This document shows, one piece after another, positions 11,177-20,966 of a stretch of DNA of 64,000 nucleotides (positions within the stretch are counted from its first letter, which is position 1; the number at the start of each line of letters is the position of its first letter). The notes beneath the pieces are model-generated. The model saw only the letters and a list, made by a program, of their open reading frames with translations. It was not told where the DNA came from and did no database searches. The position numbers and the translations under genes were made by a program. This DNA comes from a virus (taxonomy: Duplodnaviria; Heunggongvirae; Uroviricota; Caudoviricetes), in IMG/VR virus record IMGVR_UViG_3300020045_006153, positions 179,550 to 243,549 of that record, one strand, 5' to 3'.

Positions 11177-11357
11177 ATTCCTTCAATAAAGTGAAGCGTG
11201 TAAGAAACTTAGTTAGTTCACATTCATGCGTAGTATCTTCTGCATGTTGTCCATACTGAATTACAGTAGTATCTCCTTCAGTAATAACACTACGAATTTT
11301 AACTCTACGATCTTTGAATTGTGTATCAACCCATCGACTGTTTTTCTCAACTATCAT
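11157..11357 (-). CDS. Hypothetical protein
   Basis: ATGA overlap with the folE stop. Confidence 0.55.
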   Translation of the reverse strand: MIVEKNSRWVDTQFKDRRVKIRSVITEGDTTVIQYGQHAEDTTHECELTKFLTRFTLLKEYEKIYT

Positions 11358-12052
11358 CGAGGTGCCCAACCTTGTTGTAATGCAATGTTATCAAAGAATT
11401 CTTTTTTAACACTTGCATCACCTTTGAATGCTCCTCTAAGAACTGTAGTTTGAGTCAAGGAACTGTGTGCCATAATACCACGATTTTCGCAGCATCCATG
11501 AGTTGCTTGAATATAAACTGCAACATTATTGCTTCCAGTTGCGCTCATTATTTCTCGGGCAATATCATTGCATAATTCTTCTTGTAATGTTCCTCTACGT
11601 GCACACCATTGTGCAATACGAGTATATTTGCTAAGTCCAATTAACTTTTGTGCTGCAAGGATACCGATATATGCAACGCCGGTTACTGGTTGGTGATGAT
11701 GTGAACACATAGACTTTAGTTCTGAACGAACAACAAGCATTCCTTCATATCTATCATCACTATCATTCGGAAATGCAGTTGCTGCTGGACTAGGTTCATA
11801 CCTACCTGCCATTATCTCATTAAAATACATTTTAGCAAGGCGGCGCGGTGTACCTTTGCTATTTGGATCATTTTCACGATCAATTAGTAGTGCATCTAGT
11901 ACACCTTCAAACGCGATTGTTGCTTCGTCAATTAACTGATTTTTTAAATCATCTGTGAGACACTCTGCAATATTGTCTCCTGCCCAATAACGCTTTCCGT
12001 TACGGTTCATATTTTCACGTAGTACTTGCGAAAGGTTTTTACTATTTTCCAA
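11354..12052 (-). CDS. folE: GTP cyclohydrolase I
   Basis: TPRRLAKMY, SMCSHH, IGLSKY.R, LQEEL, H.CC..RG zinc ligands. Confidence 0.96.
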   Translation of the reverse strand: MENSKNLSQVLRENMNRNGKRYWAGDNIAECLTDDLKNQLIDEATIAFEGVLDALLIDRENDPNSKGTPRRLAKMYFNEIMAGRYEPSPAATAFPNDSDDRYEGMLVVRSELKSMCSHHHQPVTGVAYIGILAAQKLIGLSKYTRIAQWCARRGTLQEELCNDIAREIMSATGSNNVAVYIQATHGCCENRGIMAHSSLTQTTVLRGAFKGDASVKKEFFDNIALQQGWAPR

Positions 12053-12099: not shown

Positions 12100-12128
12100 A
12101 TTGTACAGTGTTATTTAGGCTCCTGCAA
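12100..12128 (-). promoter_or_regulatory. sigma70-type promoter for folE, with an embedded TAAATA
   Basis: TTGCAG-N17-TACAAT; TAAATA at 12117-12112. Confidence 0.55.
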
Positions 12129-12914
12129 CCTAAGGATTGTATTTTTCTTAACTGCTGCATCCAGCACGTTCATTTGTGCGTCAACATCGGATGCAATTTT
12201 TAACAATGCAGAGGTGTCTTTTGGAAAACATGCGCCACCAAATCCGAATGATCCATCTGGGCCGGGCACCTGCATATGACTATCTCCAATTCTAGGATCA
12301 TGCTTAACCATAGACGAAATCACTTCATAATTGCAATCTAATGCTTCGGCTAGTGCAGACATCTCATTCATAAAGATAACCTTAGTTGCCATAAACGAAT
12401 TAATTGTATACTTCGCTAACGATGCTTCAGCAATCGTACAATAACGAACTACTTTTAAATTAGACTGACTTATACGGATCACTCGTTCTGCTTCACGTTG
12501 GTATGCAAGTACATTACCGCCGATAAATGCAAATGTACCATTTGCATAATCTAATGATGCTCTTGCTGCTGTTAGAAACTCAGGAGCATGAACTAAGTTT
12601 GGAAATTGCTCTTGGAGTTTGGCATATGTCGTCGGCGGTGCAGTGCACTTACTAATGATAACTCCGCGGTATTTAATTTCAGCCAATTCTGCAAGAACTG
12701 ACTCAAGTGCACTTGTATCGCAGGTACCGTCTTCACTTTGAGGCGTAGGAACTGCAACGAAAATAGCAGAACATCCTTTCAAGTCAACGTATGTTGCATT
12801 GTGTCCTTTAAATGGGTCTCGCAATTCCAGCGGCATACTAATCATAGTAAATGCATCTGCAATCGCTCCGCCAACAAATCCCAAACCAATAATTCCTATC
12901 TTTTCATTAAACAT
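12111..12914 (-). CDS. UDP-glucose/GDP-mannose dehydrogenase-family protein (short form, no C-terminal UDP-binding domain)
   Basis: GLGFVG Rossmann motif, FVAVPTP, KCT.PP.T, PEFL, K...NSFMATKV.F.NE, DPRIG, catalytic GFGGACFPKD. Confidence 0.9.
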   Translation of the reverse strand: MFNEKIGIIGLGFVGGAIADAFTMISMPLELRDPFKGHNATYVDLKGCSAIFVAVPTPQSEDGTCDTSALESVLAELAEIKYRGVIISKCTAPPTTYAKLQEQFPNLVHAPEFLTAARASLDYANGTFAFIGGNVLAYQREAERVIRISQSNLKVVRYCTIAEASLAKYTINSFMATKVIFMNEMSALAEALDCNYEVISSMVKHDPRIGDSHMQVPGPDGSFGFGGACFPKDTSALLKIASDVDAQMNVLDAAVKKNTILRLQEPK

Positions 12915-13987
12915 TATTTTATATTCTCCAAAAGCGCACCAGCGTTAAAGAAGTATTTAGATAATTCTAACGTTTGCTTCTTTAATCTTGGAAGTTCTTG
13001 CTCGTAATTTTTCATTAAACGATCAATTTCTTGACAAAGATACGGCTTGTAAACTTCATACATTTTATAGTCTTCGGTCCACCTACTGTCATATTTAAAT
13101 GGCATCATGTACATTTCAGTATATGATAATCGATCAGGAACAAACGGCATAGCATTAACTAATGCACCTTCATAACACCCGATGCCAAGTGTTTCTTGCA
13201 GACTACAACTAAACACCATTTTTGCTTCACCTAACAAATTATGATATTCATTTTTTGTTAGTTCTTGATCCTGACATACAACAAATTCGTATTGTGGCAT
13301 TGCTTCCTTTAAATCTCGAAAGATTTCAACTTGCTTTTCGGGAGCAATACGATGCGGAAACACAATTAGATCACGCTTAGGCATATTCTTATATGGTGTG
13401 AGAATATCATCCATATATTCCATAGGCCAACCCGTACGAACAATTTTGCCTTCATCAATTTGATATAGCAACCATTCGTCGTCGGTAGTTTCGCTGAAAG
13501 TTTTAGCAAATAAATTAATGTGAAAATCAGTAGCAAAATAATTATGATCAATTGCATAAAAGAAACTTTGCTCTGCGTGTCTTACCCACGGTTGATCGCC
13601 GATAAGTCGCCCAAGGAAATCGTGAGGATCGTAAGACCCTGCATGCCATAGTGCATGAATAGTTACTGGAATATTCAGTAACTGACTCATATACTTCAAG
13701 TTAATAATTCCTGGATGCCATGCATCAGTAAACAGGAAATGATCACCTGATTTAATTTGACCTGCGCAAAACAATCTGCCAATTTGTTCAACTTGAGATG
13801 CTTTGTATACATTAGTGCCGCCAAAATTAAGGAATGCACCAGGTGTTGTTGCAGCAGGAATATCAGTAGGCCCGGCAATTACCTCAATGCGATGCCCTGC
13901 TTTAGAAAGTAGAAAAGGCACATGGGTCTGCCATTGACCCGTGTACCTTGATTCCACCGCCTCAATGTCGACGATGAAAACTGTCAT
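12914..13987 (-). CDS. GT-B (GT4-like) glycosyltransferase
   Basis: IVFPHRIAPEK and EX7E motif ETLGIGCYE followed by VPDRLSYTE. Confidence 0.85.
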   Translation of the reverse strand: MTVFIVDIEAVESRYTGQWQTHVPFLLSKAGHRIEVIAGPTDIPAATTPGAFLNFGGTNVYKASQVEQIGRLFCAGQIKSGDHFLFTDAWHPGIINLKYMSQLLNIPVTIHALWHAGSYDPHDFLGRLIGDQPWVRHAEQSFFYAIDHNYFATDFHINLFAKTFSETTDDEWLLYQIDEGKIVRTGWPMEYMDDILTPYKNMPKRDLIVFPHRIAPEKQVEIFRDLKEAMPQYEFVVCQDQELTKNEYHNLLGEAKMVFSCSLQETLGIGCYEGALVNAMPFVPDRLSYTEMYMMPFKYDSRWTEDYKMYEVYKPYLCQEIDRLMKNYEQELPRLKKQTLELSKYFFNAGALLENIK

Positions 13988-15307: not shown

Positions 15308-15820
15308 TTATTCTACATACAATTGCGCAGACTGTACAAATCGATCTTTAGAAACCCTATGATCCCAAATACAAAAACACCCTTTTCGTCTTCTCTCAGT
15401 AGGTTCGTGTGTTTTTTTATCAAAGGTAGCACTAATTGTATTACCTTTAAGATGTAAATATGCATAATTAGGAATCACAGCAAAATAAACCTTAAATGTT
15501 TCTGGATTTATAATTATTACAAATATATCAAGGTCTCTGCTTTTAGGGATAAGTACATACCCTGTATATTTTTTATCAATAAACGGAGTATTACAAGTTT
15601 TTAATTGAACACCATTTGTAAAATCAGTTCTTCGTTGACCCCTTTTACATCGGGTCAGGCCGGTTACCGCCACTGTCCACTGTTCGCCGATTTCGCCTAT
15701 ATTTGTTCTATTGCCTACTAATTCACCTCTAAATGCTGCAAGAATCTCTGGAGGCAACTCACCTTGAAAGTCTATACAAAAGTCATCATACGAGATTGAC
15801 ATTTGCTCAGAAGTAATCAT
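15308..15820 (-). CDS. Hypothetical protein, possible PD-(D/E)xK endonuclease
   Basis: GEIGE...TDF..GVQLKT arrangement; ATGA-type overlap with the transglycosylase gene. Confidence 0.45.
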   Translation of the reverse strand: MITSEQMSISYDDFCIDFQGELPPEILAAFRGELVGNRTNIGEIGEQWTVAVTGLTRCKRGQRRTDFTNGVQLKTCNTPFIDKKYTGYVLIPKSRDLDIFVIIINPETFKVYFAVIPNYAYLHLKGNTISATFDKKTHEPTERRRKGCFCIWDHRVSKDRFVQSAQLYVE

Positions 15821-17445
15821 TTTGTAATATCTTCTTCCAAATTACGCAATGCATCGTCATCAGGATTCGAAAGATCAACTTCTTCTTCCTTAGTAACTTC
15901 TTCAACCTCAAACAATGCATTGTAACGATTTTGAGCAGGGCCGCCTTGTAAACGTGCGCCTTCCATACTACGCAAGAATGGGCCTGCTTCCTCAATCATT
16001 GCAAATGCTTCTTCCTTGCTTTTTGTATTGAACAAATCCTCAACAAGTGTTGCAAAGTACAAAATACTACGTGGAACCCAATCCGAATGTTGATCTGCAC
16101 TGCTTTCTTTGTCACGAAGTTTATGCCAATGTCTCCAAGTTAAATACCCTTTTGTTTTAGCAATTTCAATATCCATTAATTGTTGTGCACGTTGTACTGC
16201 TTTGATATGGCATTCAACATTATGTCCCATCATTAATGCATACGCAAAACTATCCCAAGATGTCTTATTAGGAATCTTATCTAACTTATTCAACCGAGGA
16301 ACAACATGATAATGCTCTTGATTTGTGTGATCAAATTTAACATCACCTAATTCTTCATTTGTTTTGCGAACGCCTAGGTCGTAATAGCAAATATCACCTA
16401 CTGTGAGCCTGCGGCCCATTTCGCTTTCAAACGGGAACGGTATGTCGGAACCGGAAAGTCCTTTGTTGTCGAATGCTTTGTCCATAATAACACTCCATCT
16501 TTTTGTGGTGTGCTGCGCGTTTGTGTAGACAAGTCCGTGTGCTGTTGCGATAAACGGTGAGGCGCAATCAAAAGATATGGTAAGGTTTTCATTAATGTGC
16601 TTTCTAATTTGTCTCTGAATCAAGGTTAAATAACAACTCCAATCTAACTGAGCAGTGCCTAGGAAGTGGATCCAATCTTTGCCTTCTAGCAAATTGTCAT
16701 CGCGTAACGTCATTAAACGTTTCAATGTAATATCCATTTTACACATGTTGGCTCCCCCGAATGCCCAACCTTCTGCGGCTTTATCGCCCCATACTTGTGT
16801 ATCACTAAAATCCTTAACACCGTTATACCACTTTTCAGCAGTGTCCCAATCTCCGCCTTGCAATACGTTCAAGAACTTTGTATGTCCTTGACGATTATCT
16901 AAGAAGAATTTATTATTGAAACGGGTCTTGTCTAAGCAATCTTCGAATGTCTTTAATCCTGTCTTAGGACTATGAATATGGTCACATGCCCATGTAGGAA
17001 CGTCAAGCATCATAGACCAATCAGCAGTTAATTCTAACCAATCAAGAATTTGTTGACGAGTTTTAGTTGCTGCAGGGCCTTCAAAGTCAAGCCAATCAAA
17101 CTTTAAAACACCTTTACCAATTTGGTATCCACCCGAGTCACCCAAGATCATTGTGTTATCACGATCTCGTTGTTGAATCATCGACTCTTGGATAACACTT
17201 TTTTGCAAATCTAATTGTGCGTGGCCTGCAGAATACAGGCCATACTTGTATGTAAAATACCCCTCATCAGCATTTAAAAAGTTCATTCCTTCGATGCCTC
17301 GATCAAATCCTTTCGGAATTCGGGTAGCAGGAACGAACTCTTCCAATCGTTGTTTTGCAACGTATGTACTATAAAATGAACTGATTGCTGGCAAATATAC
17401 AGCATAATCCATCTGTAGTGGTGTTAAATTAACTCTGTTTGTCAT
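15817..17445 (-). CDS. TGT-superfamily 7-deazaguanine transglycosylase (DpdA-like)
   Basis: DSGGYQ, MMLDVP, NVLQG, GWAFGG, IHFLG, SFDCASP and late HN motifs; no CxCxxC zinc site; start revised to 17445, just after the clamp stop. Confidence 0.85.
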   Translation of the reverse strand: MTNRVNLTPLQMDYAVYLPAISSFYSTYVAKQRLEEFVPATRIPKGFDRGIEGMNFLNADEGYFTYKYGLYSAGHAQLDLQKSVIQESMIQQRDRDNTMILGDSGGYQIGKGVLKFDWLDFEGPAATKTRQQILDWLELTADWSMMLDVPTWACDHIHSPKTGLKTFEDCLDKTRFNNKFFLDNRQGHTKFLNVLQGGDWDTAEKWYNGVKDFSDTQVWGDKAAEGWAFGGANMCKMDITLKRLMTLRDDNLLEGKDWIHFLGTAQLDWSCYLTLIQRQIRKHINENLTISFDCASPFIATAHGLVYTNAQHTTKRWSVIMDKAFDNKGLSGSDIPFPFESEMGRRLTVGDICYYDLGVRKTNEELGDVKFDHTNQEHYHVVPRLNKLDKIPNKTSWDSFAYALMMGHNVECHIKAVQRAQQLMDIEIAKTKGYLTWRHWHKLRDKESSADQHSDWVPRSILYFATLVEDLFNTKSKEEAFAMIEEAGPFLRSMEGARLQGGPAQNRYNALFEVEEVTKEEEVDLSNPDDDALRNLEEDITK

Positions 17446-17446
17446 A

Positions 17447-18181
17447 TTATGCTTGAGCAGGAACGATATATTTGTAAGTTGCCAATCCGCTATCCATTGT
17501 AATTTGTAATGCACCGGCATCGGAAATACTTAGTTTACAATTGTTCACATCTGCAATTTTAAGGATGCTAAGAATAGCAGTAACGGGCCAAGTATACGCT
17601 TTTGTTAGTTTTCCCGTTACTCCGGTTGCAAAAATAAATTCACCGCCATGAGAACTAGCATCACCGAAAATAAATTTTAAGTTAGTTCCATCAGTTTTAA
17701 CTAAGAATGTAGTATGTTCGCTGTTTGCACCTGCTTGGAATGCAAAACGTTGCACTGCCTGTAAAGTTGGTGTAACTTCAACATCCCAATTTGCTCCACG
17801 GAATTTAACAGTTTTCAACTTTTCATTAATAACTTCGGTATTCATGAAACGATAATCGTTCTTAAAATCTCCGTTTTCGTTTTCAAAGTGGATGCCAACT
17901 GGAATAGTTTCATCATTACGAACCGCATTTACAATCTCAAGTTTAGCCTTGTTTTTGTATTCTGATCCTTCTAGCAAATATTTCAACTTGTTTAGTTGAG
18001 GCATTCCAAATACACCTACCATTTCCTTATACGGAGTAGTAGTTTCTGCGTACATAATAACTGTACGATCATCTGCCATAGAGTCAATCTTTGTAGACTT
18101 ATTGTCACCTGTAATCTTTACAATATTTAAAAAGCCTAGATTATGTGTATGGCTTACGATGTCTTGGAGAATTTCTTTCAT
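17447..18181 (-). CDS. Probable DNA polymerase sliding clamp (PCNA/gp45-like)
   Basis: 244 aa with two-domain alpha/beta periodicity and a terminal YIVPA beta strand; directly downstream of polB; clamp loader present at 36030. Confidence 0.6.
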   Translation of the reverse strand: MKEILQDIVSHTHNLGFLNIVKITGDNKSTKIDSMADDRTVIMYAETTTPYKEMVGVFGMPQLNKLKYLLEGSEYKNKAKLEIVNAVRNDETIPVGIHFENENGDFKNDYRFMNTEVINEKLKTVKFRGANWDVEVTPTLQAVQRFAFQAGANSEHTTFLVKTDGTNLKFIFGDASSHGGEFIFATGVTGKLTKAYTWPVTAILSILKIADVNNCKLSISDAGALQITMDSGLATYKYIVPAQA

Positions 18182-18202
18182 TTTAATAGTTTCCTTTTAT
18201 AT

Positions 18203-18231
18203 AGTATATTTAGAATTTCAAATAAGGTCAA
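18203..18231 (-). promoter_or_regulatory. sigma70 promoter (with overlapping TAAATA) for the clamp-transglycosylase-nuclease unit
   Basis: TTGACC-N17-TATACT; TAAATA at 18212-18207. Confidence 0.7.
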
Positions 18232-18238
18232 TTGTTTT

Positions 18239-20908
18239 TTAATCAAAAGAAAACAACGATCCAAATGTATTTGTTTGTGTAGTGGATTCTAAATCCCAAT
18301 CCAATACACCAATTAAGTTATCAATTTTATTATTGATAATAGATGTTTCCATTTCTGCGTGATCAAACGGTAGTTCTTGAAACCATTTAGGTAAATGCAA
18401 TACATCAACTGGATATGCAATACTAGTGTATCCCAACGGATTAGGACGCATTTTACAAACAATTACTTTCATACCGTCAACAATTGCAGACGAATACTTA
18501 TCACCGTTCATTCGTTTTAATGTATTCCAATTAATTGCTGCACGAACATGCCCTGGCATATTTGCCCTACCTGCTTTCTCTTCTTTTATTTGATATGCAG
18601 CAATATTGTTTGCACGTTTTGGAGAACCTTTTTCCCAGCCTGGCCGTTCTTTAAATACTGTTCTGAATTCAGAAATCATTTGTAGAATTTCTTTTTCTTT
18701 TGCATCATTAAGTACTTTATCCAATATCTTACTAAGGAAGTTTTGCATAAATTCAGGGGTGTCAGACCGCTTTAAATCCAGCCCCATTGCCTTGATTTTG
18801 CCTGGTTTCCCGTCTAAATCTTGTCTTTTTCCGTCTTTATCGTAGTATAAAACTGCGTAACGTTTTTTAGTAATAAATAGACCTTTAGACGCAACAATTT
18901 CTCGACCTGCTTTAATAACTGCACCGCGGCTTTTTGGACAATGAAACTCGTCCAACATAAGTTGAGGGAAGGTGCTGTTAACTTCATCAGCCACTGTGTC
19001 ATATAATTGAATAACAGTATCACGATCCCATGGAATTAACCCTGCATCGATTTCTTTCTTCAAGATCGGATATGCTGAAAAATACGCAGAGTCAGTATCA
19101 CCGTAAATAATACTTTTACCAACGTGATTATATTCACCTGTAATAATTTCATTTACTTTTGCAGCCATATGTTTTGCAATTCTTCGACCAGTTAATGTAG
19201 TCGATTGTCCGATTCGATTATCAAAAAATCTGCAACCTGGATTTAAAATAGCACCGTACAAACTATTCAAATTAATTTTCTTAACTAATTGACGTTTATC
19301 CCAATATTCTTCTTCAACAGAATTACCAGCATCAATTGCTGCTTTAAGTTTCTTCTGCATATCTTTACGTTCGGAATACCAACGTGCGAGCAATCCGGGA
19401 ATAATCCCTTCCTGATCATATGTAAAAATCGTTCCATTTGCACTCAGCATCCATGGTTTGTTACTTTCGTAAATCAAATCATAAATTTGTGCACCGGATG
19501 CAATTTCACTTGATCCATTTTCCCAATCAACTGTAATTTCATTTGCAATATCTTTTGCCATTACAAATTCATATTCGTTAGCACCAAACTTACCTTCCCA
19601 TGCTGCGGCAAAACTTGCACCCTTCGCTATCTTGGCTTCAATTTCAGATTTAGTATAATCTTGACGAAGTTGACCAATAATTGTTTCAGGTCCCATGTTT
19701 AATGCACGAATAGCAGAAGGATATAGTGAGTTAATATCCATTGAGCCAATCCAATCATGCAACCCTTTCTTCGGGTATGCAACATATGCGCCTGCTGCTT
19801 GATTATCTATACTATCATCTCTAGCAGCCCGATCAGGAACAATTAATCCACGAGCATGTGCTTCGTTAATAATAGCCTGCTCGGTTACAGCAACTGCGCC
19901 CATTGTAGTTTGTAATAGAACAGTGTTTTCATGTGCAAGCGTATTTGCAAGATCCATGAACTTCAATTTTTTATCCAACTTGTCAAGAAGCATTGTATCC
20001 TGTCTGTTGTATAAAATAAATGTTCTGAAATCATTATTATACAATTGATCTAAGGTACCTTCGTATTGCGTCTTACGTTCATTAAGTTCGTATTCTCCAA
20101 TTGCGTCCAATGAATAACTATGCCGTTCTTCATACGTGTACTTACGATACAGATTCAAACTGTCAAGGTGCACACGCCCGATTAAGTCATATGTAGATGC
20201 TGCCTTACCATACTTTTCATATTCACGCTTCTTTGGAAACTTATTCCACAAACAGAACCTGCGCGTATCTTCTTTGCTTAGTGCTTTAGTAACACGATTA
20301 ACAGTGTAAGGAACGTCAAATCCTTCACTATTCCATCCAGAAATAACATCAGCATCTTCGATTAAGTTTAGAAAAGTATCTAACACTTCTGCTTCTGTTT
20401 CAAACAAAATAGTGTTTGGGATATCTTTAACTAATTCTTGTGCTTCGGACATTGTTAATGTTTTTGGAGGAACCGCAAGACATATCAATGTGTCTAACCA
20501 TTGTAGGTAGACAGCAATCGCAGTAATTGGCATAAATGCATCTTCAGGTGATGCATATCCGCGCTCTGGATCAAAGTCTACCTCAATATCCCAAAATGCT
20601 ACATTTAATTTAGGAGCATCTTTACCTAGGTAATTTTCTTCAAGCGTACGAAACACAGGTTTAACATCACTCTCATATAAAGTGTGATCTCCGTGTATTC
20701 TTAATTCTTTCTGAAATTCTTTTTGCGTTTTGCAAACAATTTTGCCTAACGATTCATTAAAAATGCTTTTAAACTTCCCTTTTTGATCAGGGTAATAAAA
20801 CATATAACGAGCAGGGTAATCTTGATAGATTCGTCCTAATTTTGGGTCACGTTCAACAACTTGTACAATGTCGTTGTCGCGATCCCAGTTTGCGTCTACA
20901 TAACTCAT
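18239..20908 (-). CDS. Family B DNA polymerase (gp43-like)
   Basis: Exo motifs DIE, GWNS.GFD, YN.QD; pol motifs DINSLYPS, KINLNSLYG, YGDTDS, KKRY; start revised to 20908 (AAGGAG SD). Confidence 0.97.
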   Translation of the reverse strand: MSYVDANWDRDNDIVQVVERDPKLGRIYQDYPARYMFYYPDQKGKFKSIFNESLGKIVCKTQKEFQKELRIHGDHTLYESDVKPVFRTLEENYLGKDAPKLNVAFWDIEVDFDPERGYASPEDAFMPITAIAVYLQWLDTLICLAVPPKTLTMSEAQELVKDIPNTILFETEAEVLDTFLNLIEDADVISGWNSEGFDVPYTVNRVTKALSKEDTRRFCLWNKFPKKREYEKYGKAASTYDLIGRVHLDSLNLYRKYTYEERHSYSLDAIGEYELNERKTQYEGTLDQLYNNDFRTFILYNRQDTMLLDKLDKKLKFMDLANTLAHENTVLLQTTMGAVAVTEQAIINEAHARGLIVPDRAARDDSIDNQAAGAYVAYPKKGLHDWIGSMDINSLYPSAIRALNMGPETIIGQLRQDYTKSEIEAKIAKGASFAAAWEGKFGANEYEFVMAKDIANEITVDWENGSSEIASGAQIYDLIYESNKPWMLSANGTIFTYDQEGIIPGLLARWYSERKDMQKKLKAAIDAGNSVEEEYWDKRQLVKKINLNSLYGAILNPGCRFFDNRIGQSTTLTGRRIAKHMAAKVNEIITGEYNHVGKSIIYGDTDSAYFSAYPILKKEIDAGLIPWDRDTVIQLYDTVADEVNSTFPQLMLDEFHCPKSRGAVIKAGREIVASKGLFITKKRYAVLYYDKDGKRQDLDGKPGKIKAMGLDLKRSDTPEFMQNFLSKILDKVLNDAKEKEILQMISEFRTVFKERPGWEKGSPKRANNIAAYQIKEEKAGRANMPGHVRAAINWNTLKRMNGDKYSSAIVDGMKVIVCKMRPNPLGYTSIAYPVDVLHLPKWFQELPFDHAEMETSIINNKIDNLIGVLDWDLESTTQTNTFGSLFSFD

Positions 20909-20917
20909 ATTTTCTCC

Positions 20918-20966
20918 TTGTCTTTTCCGGCAGACAAATACCAATTAATCATTTATGGCTGATTAA
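20918..20966 (-). promoter_or_regulatory. Twin RNA hairpins with 8-nt GCCNNAAA loops in the polymerase leader (putative translational operator)
   Basis: TTAATCA-GCCATAAA-TGATTAA and TTGTCT-GCCGGAAA-AGACAA; the second runs into the SD. Confidence 0.65.

Follow-up and report, generated by a model that had tools for sequence, protein, structure and literature searches.

A polymerase-like peptide in the tail of a phage DpdA-like transglycosylase points to docking on the phage sliding clamp

How does an enzyme that exchanges bases in DNA find the DNA of its own phage? Phage 7-deazaguanine DNA modifications defeat many restriction systems, and how the base-exchange enzyme finds phage DNA and replaces anywhere from 0.01% to 100% of its guanines is unexplained (PMC10516641); on this point the same study goes no further than proposing that insertion is post-replicative. 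The question is raised by a locus in a 64,000-nucleotide stretch of a tailed-phage genome (hereafter the window; IMG/VR record IMGVR_UViG_3300020045_006153, positions 179,550 to 243,549), in which the genes for a T4-type, family-B DNA polymerase (PolB), a 244-residue protein and a 542-residue transglycosylase follow one another. A first-pass annotation of the window had proposed that the transglycosylase rides the sliding clamp and modifies nascent phage DNA. We found that the tail of this enzyme holds a peptide resembling the C-terminus of the polymerase of the same phage, and we think it probable that the enzyme is a clamp-docked, replication-coupled DNA base exchanger. Our literature search on DpdA or transglycosylase together with the clamp found no paper making this link.

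PolB ends in TQTNTFGSLFSFD, the final residues being TFGSLFSFD. Nearly all related loci that reach the end of the polymerase keep this end as ..NTF..LF.F[ED], with the variants NNF, TTF and NVF, and the PolB ends of the window phage and its relatives resemble the SLDFLFG of T4 (gp43 C-terminus KASLDFLFG). The function of such an end is well documented. The C-terminal peptide of the RB69 polymerase was crystallised in a hydrophobic pocket of the clamp gp45, and gp43, gp55 and gp33 have similar hydrophobic-acidic C-termini, each of which binds gp45 and can replace the others, the gp55 epitope being carried on a divergent 17-residue linker (PMC3012046, PMC2988020). The first-pass annotation had seen the pattern N-x-(F/Y)-x-x-L-F both at the PolB end and in the transglycosylase, where an acidic tail follows it, and we recover it in the enzyme at residues 505–512.

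The strongest evidence for clamp docking is that the tail peptide mirrors the cognate polymerase (Table 1). Among the ten pairs compared are those of ACP17, BUCT-ZZ01, X1 and Moby, cultured T4-like phages whose enzymes form a separate, only distantly related DpdA2-like clade; the contigs of P0263, P0306 and P0296 end before any polymerase gene. In a permutation test over the ten pairs, with scores that omit the LF core used for alignment, cognate pairs were more alike than shuffled ones, with a global p of 1e-4 to 6e-4 and a within-clade p of 0.007 to 0.02. These values are to be taken as indicative, because the choice of peptides and their alignment on the LF core were made by eye.

Table 1. 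C-terminal peptides of the polymerase and tail peptides of the transglycosylase from the same source; (end) marks the end of the protein.
Source	PolB end	Enzyme tail
Window	TFGSLFSFD (end)	RYNALFEVE
PA5oct	HFDSLFGW (end)	SFNSLFDVD
L088	IFNSLFSF (end)	HFSSLFSFD
L089	LDDLFDF (end)	VNNLFDFS (end)
L090	AMKLFNY (end)	AKSLFEF (end)
L109	LFDSLFG (end)	VFDAMFETN
ACP17	SLDDLFE (end)	TLDELFE (end)
BUCT-ZZ01	TLDDFFS (end)	SLDSFFD (end)
X1	SLESLFG (end)	SLEELFG (end)
Moby	SLEDLFGW (end)	SLDDLFG (end)

The tail peptide also behaves as a short linear motif. QNRYNALF lies inside the only disordered stretch of the enzyme model (residues 499–529, predicted local distance difference test score (pLDDT) <50), and the linker around it varies among homologues in both sequence and length. 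Most tails, both in homologues about 80% identical and in 80 viral contigs, contain Q-N-x-[FY]-x-x-[LF]-F with varying x positions, and several read QNTFGSLF, identical to the PolB end; N506, F508, L511 and F512 are nearly invariant (alignment A3). Variants with a rebuilt linker retain the [LF]F pair (NISNDLFYEE, NIVDSLFDE, NKGLFDW), and one contig (L027) has LY. The tails of distant relatives vary in length and defy alignment, and many of them terminate exactly at the motif, as in ..NNLFDFS, ..KSLFEF and ..LDELF. The looser pattern [FYLMIVW]xx[LMF]F is present in the last 70 residues of 51 of the 112 full-length enzyme representatives obtained by clustering at 50% identity. Shuffled tails contain it 17.6 ± 3.7 times (maximum 30), an interior window of the same proteins twice, and other open reading frames (ORFs) of the genome in 22 cases out of 242; the enrichment over shuffled tails is about threefold, and the observed count was reached by no shuffle. 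The strict form N.[FY]..[LF]F within 45 residues of the C-terminus is found in 2 of the 507 ORFs of the 353-kb genome, PolB and the enzyme alone, against 0.5 expected from shuffles (about 0.001 per protein). Conservation of the motif in homologues, on which the first-pass proposal depended, extends to close and distant relatives, and the motif tracks the cognate polymerase C-terminus. Of the conditions that would have overturned that proposal, two were checked, a 244-residue protein without a clamp fold and a motif that homologues do not keep, and neither was borne out.

A second conserved element follows the motif, an acidic helix (DDDALRNLEEDI, pattern NPDDDxLRxLEE) modelled at a pLDDT of about 72–74, in which D530, L533, L536 and E537 are nearly invariant. 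It is kept in the Pseudomonas jumbo phage PA5oct and in several distant relatives, and tails that stop at the LF motif lack it. This helix might make a second contact or act in autoinhibition.

Other proteins of the genome also have ends of this general kind. An N6/N4 DNA methyltransferase (L082, genome 75015–75881) ends in SSDLFE, and QueD (L083, genome 162895–163392) ends in EDLFA. The methyltransferase was considered as a clamp-client control and rejected, since a single 80%-identical relative ends differently. The ends of the baseplate hub (TFFA) and the tail lysozyme (NLFA) were taken as chance.

The likely partner of the peptide is the clamp, because the T4-type PolB end is a documented clamp ligand and the gene order agrees. 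The first-pass order of polB, clamp and transglycosylase, all on the minus strand with a 1-nt gap before the enzyme, is correct. Relatives down to about 35% identity all show this order on one strand wherever the contig extends to the polymerase, with 0 to 5 other genes between clamp and enzyme.

The identity of the 244-residue protein as a clamp had been only putative in the first-pass annotation. Sequence searches are uninformative, with no Pfam family, no PDB sequence match by phmmer, and a single PHROG match of unknown function (phrog_12062), so that the assignment rests on fold and context. The AlphaFold2 (AF2) model, built from 30 homologues, has a pLDDT of 89.2 and a predicted template-modelling score of 0.86, and the two-domain DNA-clamp fold spans the whole chain. 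Foldseek matches it to PCNAs at an E value of 3.5e-11. An exhaustive VIA-align comparison gives a Z of 17.5 with A. fulgidus PCNA (root-mean-square deviation (rmsd) 3.5 Å, 219 residues aligned) and of 17.1 with T4 gp45 (6drt; rmsd 3.1 Å, 211 aligned); the 38 best-scoring chains are without exception clamps or processivity factors, and no other kind of chain reaches a Z of 6. By its modelled fold, then, the protein is a PCNA/gp45-type sliding clamp. The window also encodes a clamp-loader ATPase with matches to PF00004 (E 3e-16) and PF13177 (E 6.6e-12), a sub-threshold match to Gp44_lid and an N-terminal W.EKYRP. The clamp homologue of PA5oct (L001:6912–7658) is annotated as a "structural protein" from virion mass spectrometry, an odd finding for a replication clamp that could reflect either carry-over or true packaging.

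The first-pass annotation had suggested predicting the structure of the clamp trimer with each peptide. Three clamp copies folded together with tail residues 488–542 of the enzyme, using alignments, scored 0.56 (runs 0.66, 0.40 and 0.56), and controls in which the clamp or the tail was replaced scored 0.00–0.01 (best of three, 0.01). The clamp chains had a pLDDT of 90–91, and the runs showed at least 47% contact agreement with a partner pLDDT of at least 45. Of 80 solved complexes 58 passed the mark used for this prediction, and of 110 mismatched pairs 2 did; only 7 of the 80 solved complexes passed it with a score of 0.60 or lower, as did both of the passing mismatched pairs. The pass may also reflect likeness to solved structures, because clamp–peptide complexes have already been solved. 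The prediction gives weak support, and it returned neither an interface nor the geometry of the clamp ring.

Does the enzyme itself act on DNA? Its identification needed the fold, as the protein has no Pfam or PHROG match and no PDB match by phmmer. In particular, PF01702, the Pfam family of tRNA-guanine transglycosylases (TGTs), matches neither the enzyme (E ≤0.01) nor the six-frame translation of the genome (E ≤1). The top Foldseek matches of the AF2 model (pLDDT 91) are exclusively TGTs, at an E value of about 3e-6, and VIA aligns model residues 12–463 with the T. maritima TGT (Z 18.7, rmsd 4.5 Å, 303 aligned). The family comprises 859 cluster representatives at E ≤0.001. In 61 aligned members, which average 25% column identity, D103, S104 and G106 of the DSGG motif are invariant, as are D148, H260 and D293, and G105 is nearly so. 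We take D103, D148 and D293 to be the equivalents of D102, D156 and D280 of the Z. mobilis TGT, an equation made by order and motif and not by residue-level superposition.

The CxCxxC zinc site is absent from the enzyme, as the first-pass annotation stated, and from all 61 aligned members, and we file the enzyme as a DpdA-like member of the TGT superfamily and not as a canonical tRNA TGT because of this absence. The first-pass annotation had further taken the missing site to argue for a DNA substrate. The absence is real, but alone it does not separate DNA enzymes from tRNA enzymes, and we set this argument aside.

The enzyme shares with the known DpdA enzymes (bDpdA and DpdA1–DpdA4; PMC6884629, PMC10516641) the TGT fold, the DSGG motif, the association with FolE, QueD, QueE and DpdL, and the predicted job of inserting a 7-deazaguanine base into DNA after strand synthesis. 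It differs from them in having neither a Pfam TGT match nor the CxCxxC site, in its larger size, and in its helical C-terminal part and tail. In hhalign comparisons, the family aligns with ACP17 DpdA, a relative of nt-1 DpdA2, over 175 columns (probability 96%, E 2.6e-9) and barely with phiST DpdA3, over 83 columns (probability 66%, E 5.6e-5). By these profile alignments the family is far from phiST DpdA3 and distantly related to ACP17 DpdA.

The substrate is likely to be DNA, to judge from the FolE, QueD, QueE-like and DpdL context together with the restriction resistance reported for PA5oct. FolE stands at the opening step of the pathway that makes 7-deazaguanine, and the decarboxylation predicted for DpdL would yield 7-deazaguanine. 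The LGFPHRHIF of the DpdL-like protein fits the LxxxHRHxF signature given in PMC10516641, and in tblastn the protein matches the DpdL genes of phiST and ACP17. QueD and a radical S-adenosylmethionine QueE-like protein are encoded elsewhere in the genome, and QueC was not found in it. DpdL being present and QueC absent, the inserted base is probably 7-deazaguanine itself or a derivative; phages containing DpdL are reported to have 2'-deoxy-7-deazaguanine (dDG) in their DNA (PMC10516641). PA5oct has a 42%-identical homologue of the enzyme in the same gene order. It reportedly resists restriction at G-containing sites and is targeted by nucleases that sense modified G (PMC12191111), and Iyer and colleagues list a deazaguanine system for it (PMC7824862). 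The 542-residue protein is most likely a divergent DpdA-like DNA transglycosylase whose reaction replaces guanines of the phage genome with a 7-deazaguanine base.

A 357-residue glycosyltransferase-like protein (12914–13987, minus strand) without a Pfam match has homologues in PA5oct (45% identity; L001:9617–10678) and ACP17 (39%; L093:6963–7991), encoded in each phage by the gene directly downstream of dpdA. It is a conserved partner of the enzyme and may add further groups to the base. In the window it is followed by a short UDP-glucose dehydrogenase-like gene (12111–12914).

These elements can be joined in a mechanism. The RFC-like loader of the phage would place the phage clamp at primer–template junctions. 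Clamps at or behind the fork would then dock the enzyme through its tail peptide, bound in the hydrophobic pocket, and hold it on new phage duplex, where it would replace G with the 7-deazaguanine base that FolE, QueD, QueE and DpdL supply. Base exchange would thereby be coupled to replication, efficient and confined to DNA bearing the phage clamp, and host DNA would be spared. The analysis shows the two folds, the motif with its conservation, disorder and covariation with the polymerase end, and a clamp loader; that the tail physically binds the clamp, when the exchange happens with respect to the fork and which base is inserted are inferred. The self/non-self selectivity of modification that the first-pass annotation proposed would follow by the same inference. 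The eukaryotic maintenance DNA methyltransferase DNMT1 provides a likeness to such a clamp-docked enzyme, as it is recruited to PCNA through a PIP box (PCNA-interacting peptide) and lays its mark behind the fork. It differs from the window enzyme in transferring a methyl group instead of exchanging a base, in its unrelated fold, in being cellular, and in its motif, Qxx[LIM]xx[FY][FY].

The closer likeness is to the gp45 clients of T4 and RB69. Common to gp43, gp55, gp33 and the present enzyme are a short, acidic, LF-containing peptide, a divergent flexible linker and near-identity to the polymerase end, and both systems have a clamp of the gp45/PCNA fold with its own RFC-like loader (PMC2988020). 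The client here differs in being a DNA base-exchange enzyme and not a replication or transcription factor, and its binding is predicted only. The peptide, moreover, is internal in the window phage, with 30 more residues after it that include the conserved acidic helix, and it is terminal in many relatives.

This last difference is one of several observations that weigh against docking, since the T4-type epitopes are terminal and the window peptide lies 30 residues before the end. About half of the distant full-length relatives have no recognisable motif. The tail peptide of pf16 is degenerate, and the DpdA2 enzymes of KVP40 and nt-1 have none. The enzyme gene is not strictly adjacent to the clamp gene in relatives, where up to five genes intervene. 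Very short patterns are unspecific, as the xLF[AE]-like ends of the baseplate hub and tail lysozyme illustrate. The late-sigma factor homologue of T4 gp55 (L106:1042–1959; genome 243507–244424, straddling the window end; E 1.2e-7), which is much longer than that of T4, ends in an acidic tail, SVDSDFESEDDGEESA, without a clean LF, and the genome offers no internal positive control besides PolB. The sole in-silico binding test, finally, gives weak support and reported no interface. Tethering is therefore not universal among DpdA enzymes, given the distant relatives, KVP40 and nt-1 without the motif and the degenerate peptide of pf16. We dropped the idea that the tail peptide explains the complete guanine replacement by DpdA3: phiST DpdA3 has no such peptide, and phiST uses a Pol III alpha polymerase.

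Three other explanations of the tail were considered. The shared peptide might bind a common partner other than the clamp, such as a single-strand-binding protein, a helicase or the clamp loader, in which case the link to replication stays but does not pass through the clamp pocket, or it might be a localisation, packaging or turnover signal. The second conserved element in the tail hints at further contacts, the complex prediction yielded no interface, and the structural annotation of the PA5oct clamp homologue indicates that the charting of their biology is incomplete. Against such a partner, the ligand that the enzyme tail imitates is one documented to bind the clamp, the PolB ends of the window phage and its relatives look like that of T4, and the complex prediction scored 0.00–0.01 when either the clamp or the tail was replaced. 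We judge this explanation unlikely. We consider it improbable, too, that the LF-acidic tail has no targeting role at all and is a compositional or structural trait of the family, for example an autoinhibitory or DNA-mimicking one, that resembles PolB by coincidence. In favour of this are the shortness of the motif, its absence from about half of the distant relatives, the xLF[AE] ends of unrelated structural proteins in the genome, and the failure of an 80%-identical relative to keep the DLFE end of the DNA methyltransferase. A mere trait of this kind fits poorly, however, with a motif that shifts in position and retains its core, with an enrichment that no shuffle equals, with the low per-protein chance of the strict motif, and with the recurrence of the match to the cognate PolB in two DpdA clades as distantly related as those of the window enzyme and ACP17.

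The remaining alternative is that the enzyme is a tRNA-guanine transglycosylase altering host or phage tRNA and that its place beside replication genes is incidental. Its fold and DSGG motif are indeed common to tRNA TGTs, but it matches no PF01702 profile and has no zinc site, its gene stands among those for FolE, DpdL and the conserved glycosyltransferase-like partner, dDG is reported from the DNA of phages with DpdL (PMC10516641), PA5oct DNA resists enzymes cutting at G-containing sites (PMC12191111), and a tRNA enzyme would have no evident use for a polymerase-like clamp peptide. We regard a tRNA substrate as very improbable.

Two published observations fit clamp docking, and neither proves it. 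The DpdA2 of nt-1 has no peptide, and in nt-1 DNA no more than a few hundred bases are modified in every million nucleotides (PMC6884629). ACP17 DpdA has the peptide, and its expression in E. coli in the absence of phage proteins yielded no product (PMC10516641). A more far-reaching version, which we put forward tentatively and consider doubtful as a whole, is that clamp docking sets the extent and the target of 7-deazaguanine installation. The enzyme would be one of three clients on the trimeric clamp, acting seconds after synthesis and selective for self; DpdA enzymes of the nt-1/KVP40 type would modify about one base in ten thousand; those of the ACP17 type would become active once clamp and loader are supplied; and the acidic helix would be a second contact with a regulatory role, perhaps as an autoinhibitory mimic of DNA that docking releases.

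If the clamp-docking reading is true, the peptide provides a testable mechanism for targeting, efficiency and the sparing of host DNA, and a DNA-hypermodification enzyme joins the sliding-clamp toolbelt. It also suggests a remedy for failed heterologous reconstitutions, namely co-expression of the phage clamp and loader. The feature is widespread. The enzyme has thousands of metagenomic relatives, and cultured phages that infect Acidovorax, Xanthomonas, Stenotrophomonas and Synechococcus have the peptide in the second DpdA clade. With PA5oct or ACP17 in culture, docking can be tested at the bench.

The features discussed are collected in Table 2. The source genome is 353 kb long, 99% complete by CheckV and about 35–39% G+C. 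The nearest cultured relatives for the genes of the locus are PA5oct, Vibrio phage 2.275.O and Sinorhizobium phage Phosso, and a megablast search of the locus region against the phage collection gave no match.

Table 2. Features of the polymerase–clamp–transglycosylase locus and associated genes, in window coordinates.
Feature	Position	Strand	Basis
Family-B (T4-type) DNA polymerase (PolB)	18239–20944	-	PF00136, PF03104, phrog_262
Sliding clamp, PCNA/gp45 type, 244 residues	17447–18181	-	AF2 fold, Foldseek, VIA-align
DpdA-like TGT-superfamily transglycosylase, 542 residues	15817–17445	-	AF2 fold, Foldseek, VIA, invariant D103 (DSGG), D148, D293
PolB C-terminal peptide NTFGSLFSFD, presumed clamp-binding epitope	18242–18271	-	Read from sequence
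Promoter-like site TTGACC-17-TATACT, upstream of clamp gene	18203–18231	-	Consensus match
Disordered linker in enzyme tail, residues 499–529	15859–15951	-	AF2 pLDDT <50
Tail motif QNRYNALF, residues 505–512 of 542-residue form, candidate clamp-docking peptide	15910–15933	-	Conservation
Acidic amphipathic helix DDDALRNLEEDI, residues 530–541	15823–15858	-	Second conserved tail element
Clamp-loader ATPase, RFC/gp44 type, 307 residues	36030–36953	-	PF00004, PF13177, W.EKYRP
DpdL-like protein (predicted 7-carboxy-7-deazaguanine (CDG) decarboxylase), 123 residues	14226–14597	-	LGFPHRHIF, phrog_17812
GTP cyclohydrolase I (FolE)	11354–12052	-	PF01227 E 7.9e-40

PolB is identified by PF00136 (E 2.4e-37), PF03104 (E 6.2e-19) and phrog_262 (E 3.6e-194), and within the ORF as listed its real start is likely the ATG of MSYVDANW. 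The enzyme begins at the ATG at 17445, 1 nt past the clamp stop (GCA TAA T ATG). We prefer this start to the public call of 531 residues because homologues of 540–551 residues cover 99–100% of the 542-residue form.

Between polB and the clamp gene lies a 57-nt spacer (18182–18238) that contains a promoter-like site and an AAGGAA ribosome-binding site. The first-pass annotation had placed a promoter shared by clamp and enzyme here. The site is present, matching the consensus at 10 of 12 positions, and its position is kept in relatives (TTGA[CT]N...TAnnnT in 16 and a CTAAATA core in 20 of 22 related contigs), but such sites are in no excess across the region, with 37 seen and 41 expected from shuffles. 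In the polB–clamp spacers of loci L003–L075, the distance between CTAAATA and the start codon is constant, and in most cases TTGAC lies 17 nt upstream of CTAAATA. To judge from this arrangement, the spacer site looks like a phage-specific promoter made of a -35 box and a T4-late-like TAAATA element.

The genes of the locus are interrupted in some relatives. The polymerase gene is split by a homing endonuclease in PA5oct (L001:1605–6831) and by an intein plus an inserted gene in L090 (1955–6154), and the clamp of L109 (8231–8987) reads as two ORFs of 82 and 168 residues, which could be a frameshift or an assembly error. Downstream of the enzyme in the window, a basic ORF of 170 residues (15308–15820, minus strand) without a Pfam or PHROG match overlaps the enzyme stop with its start by 4 nt, and it looks translationally coupled to the transglycosylase.

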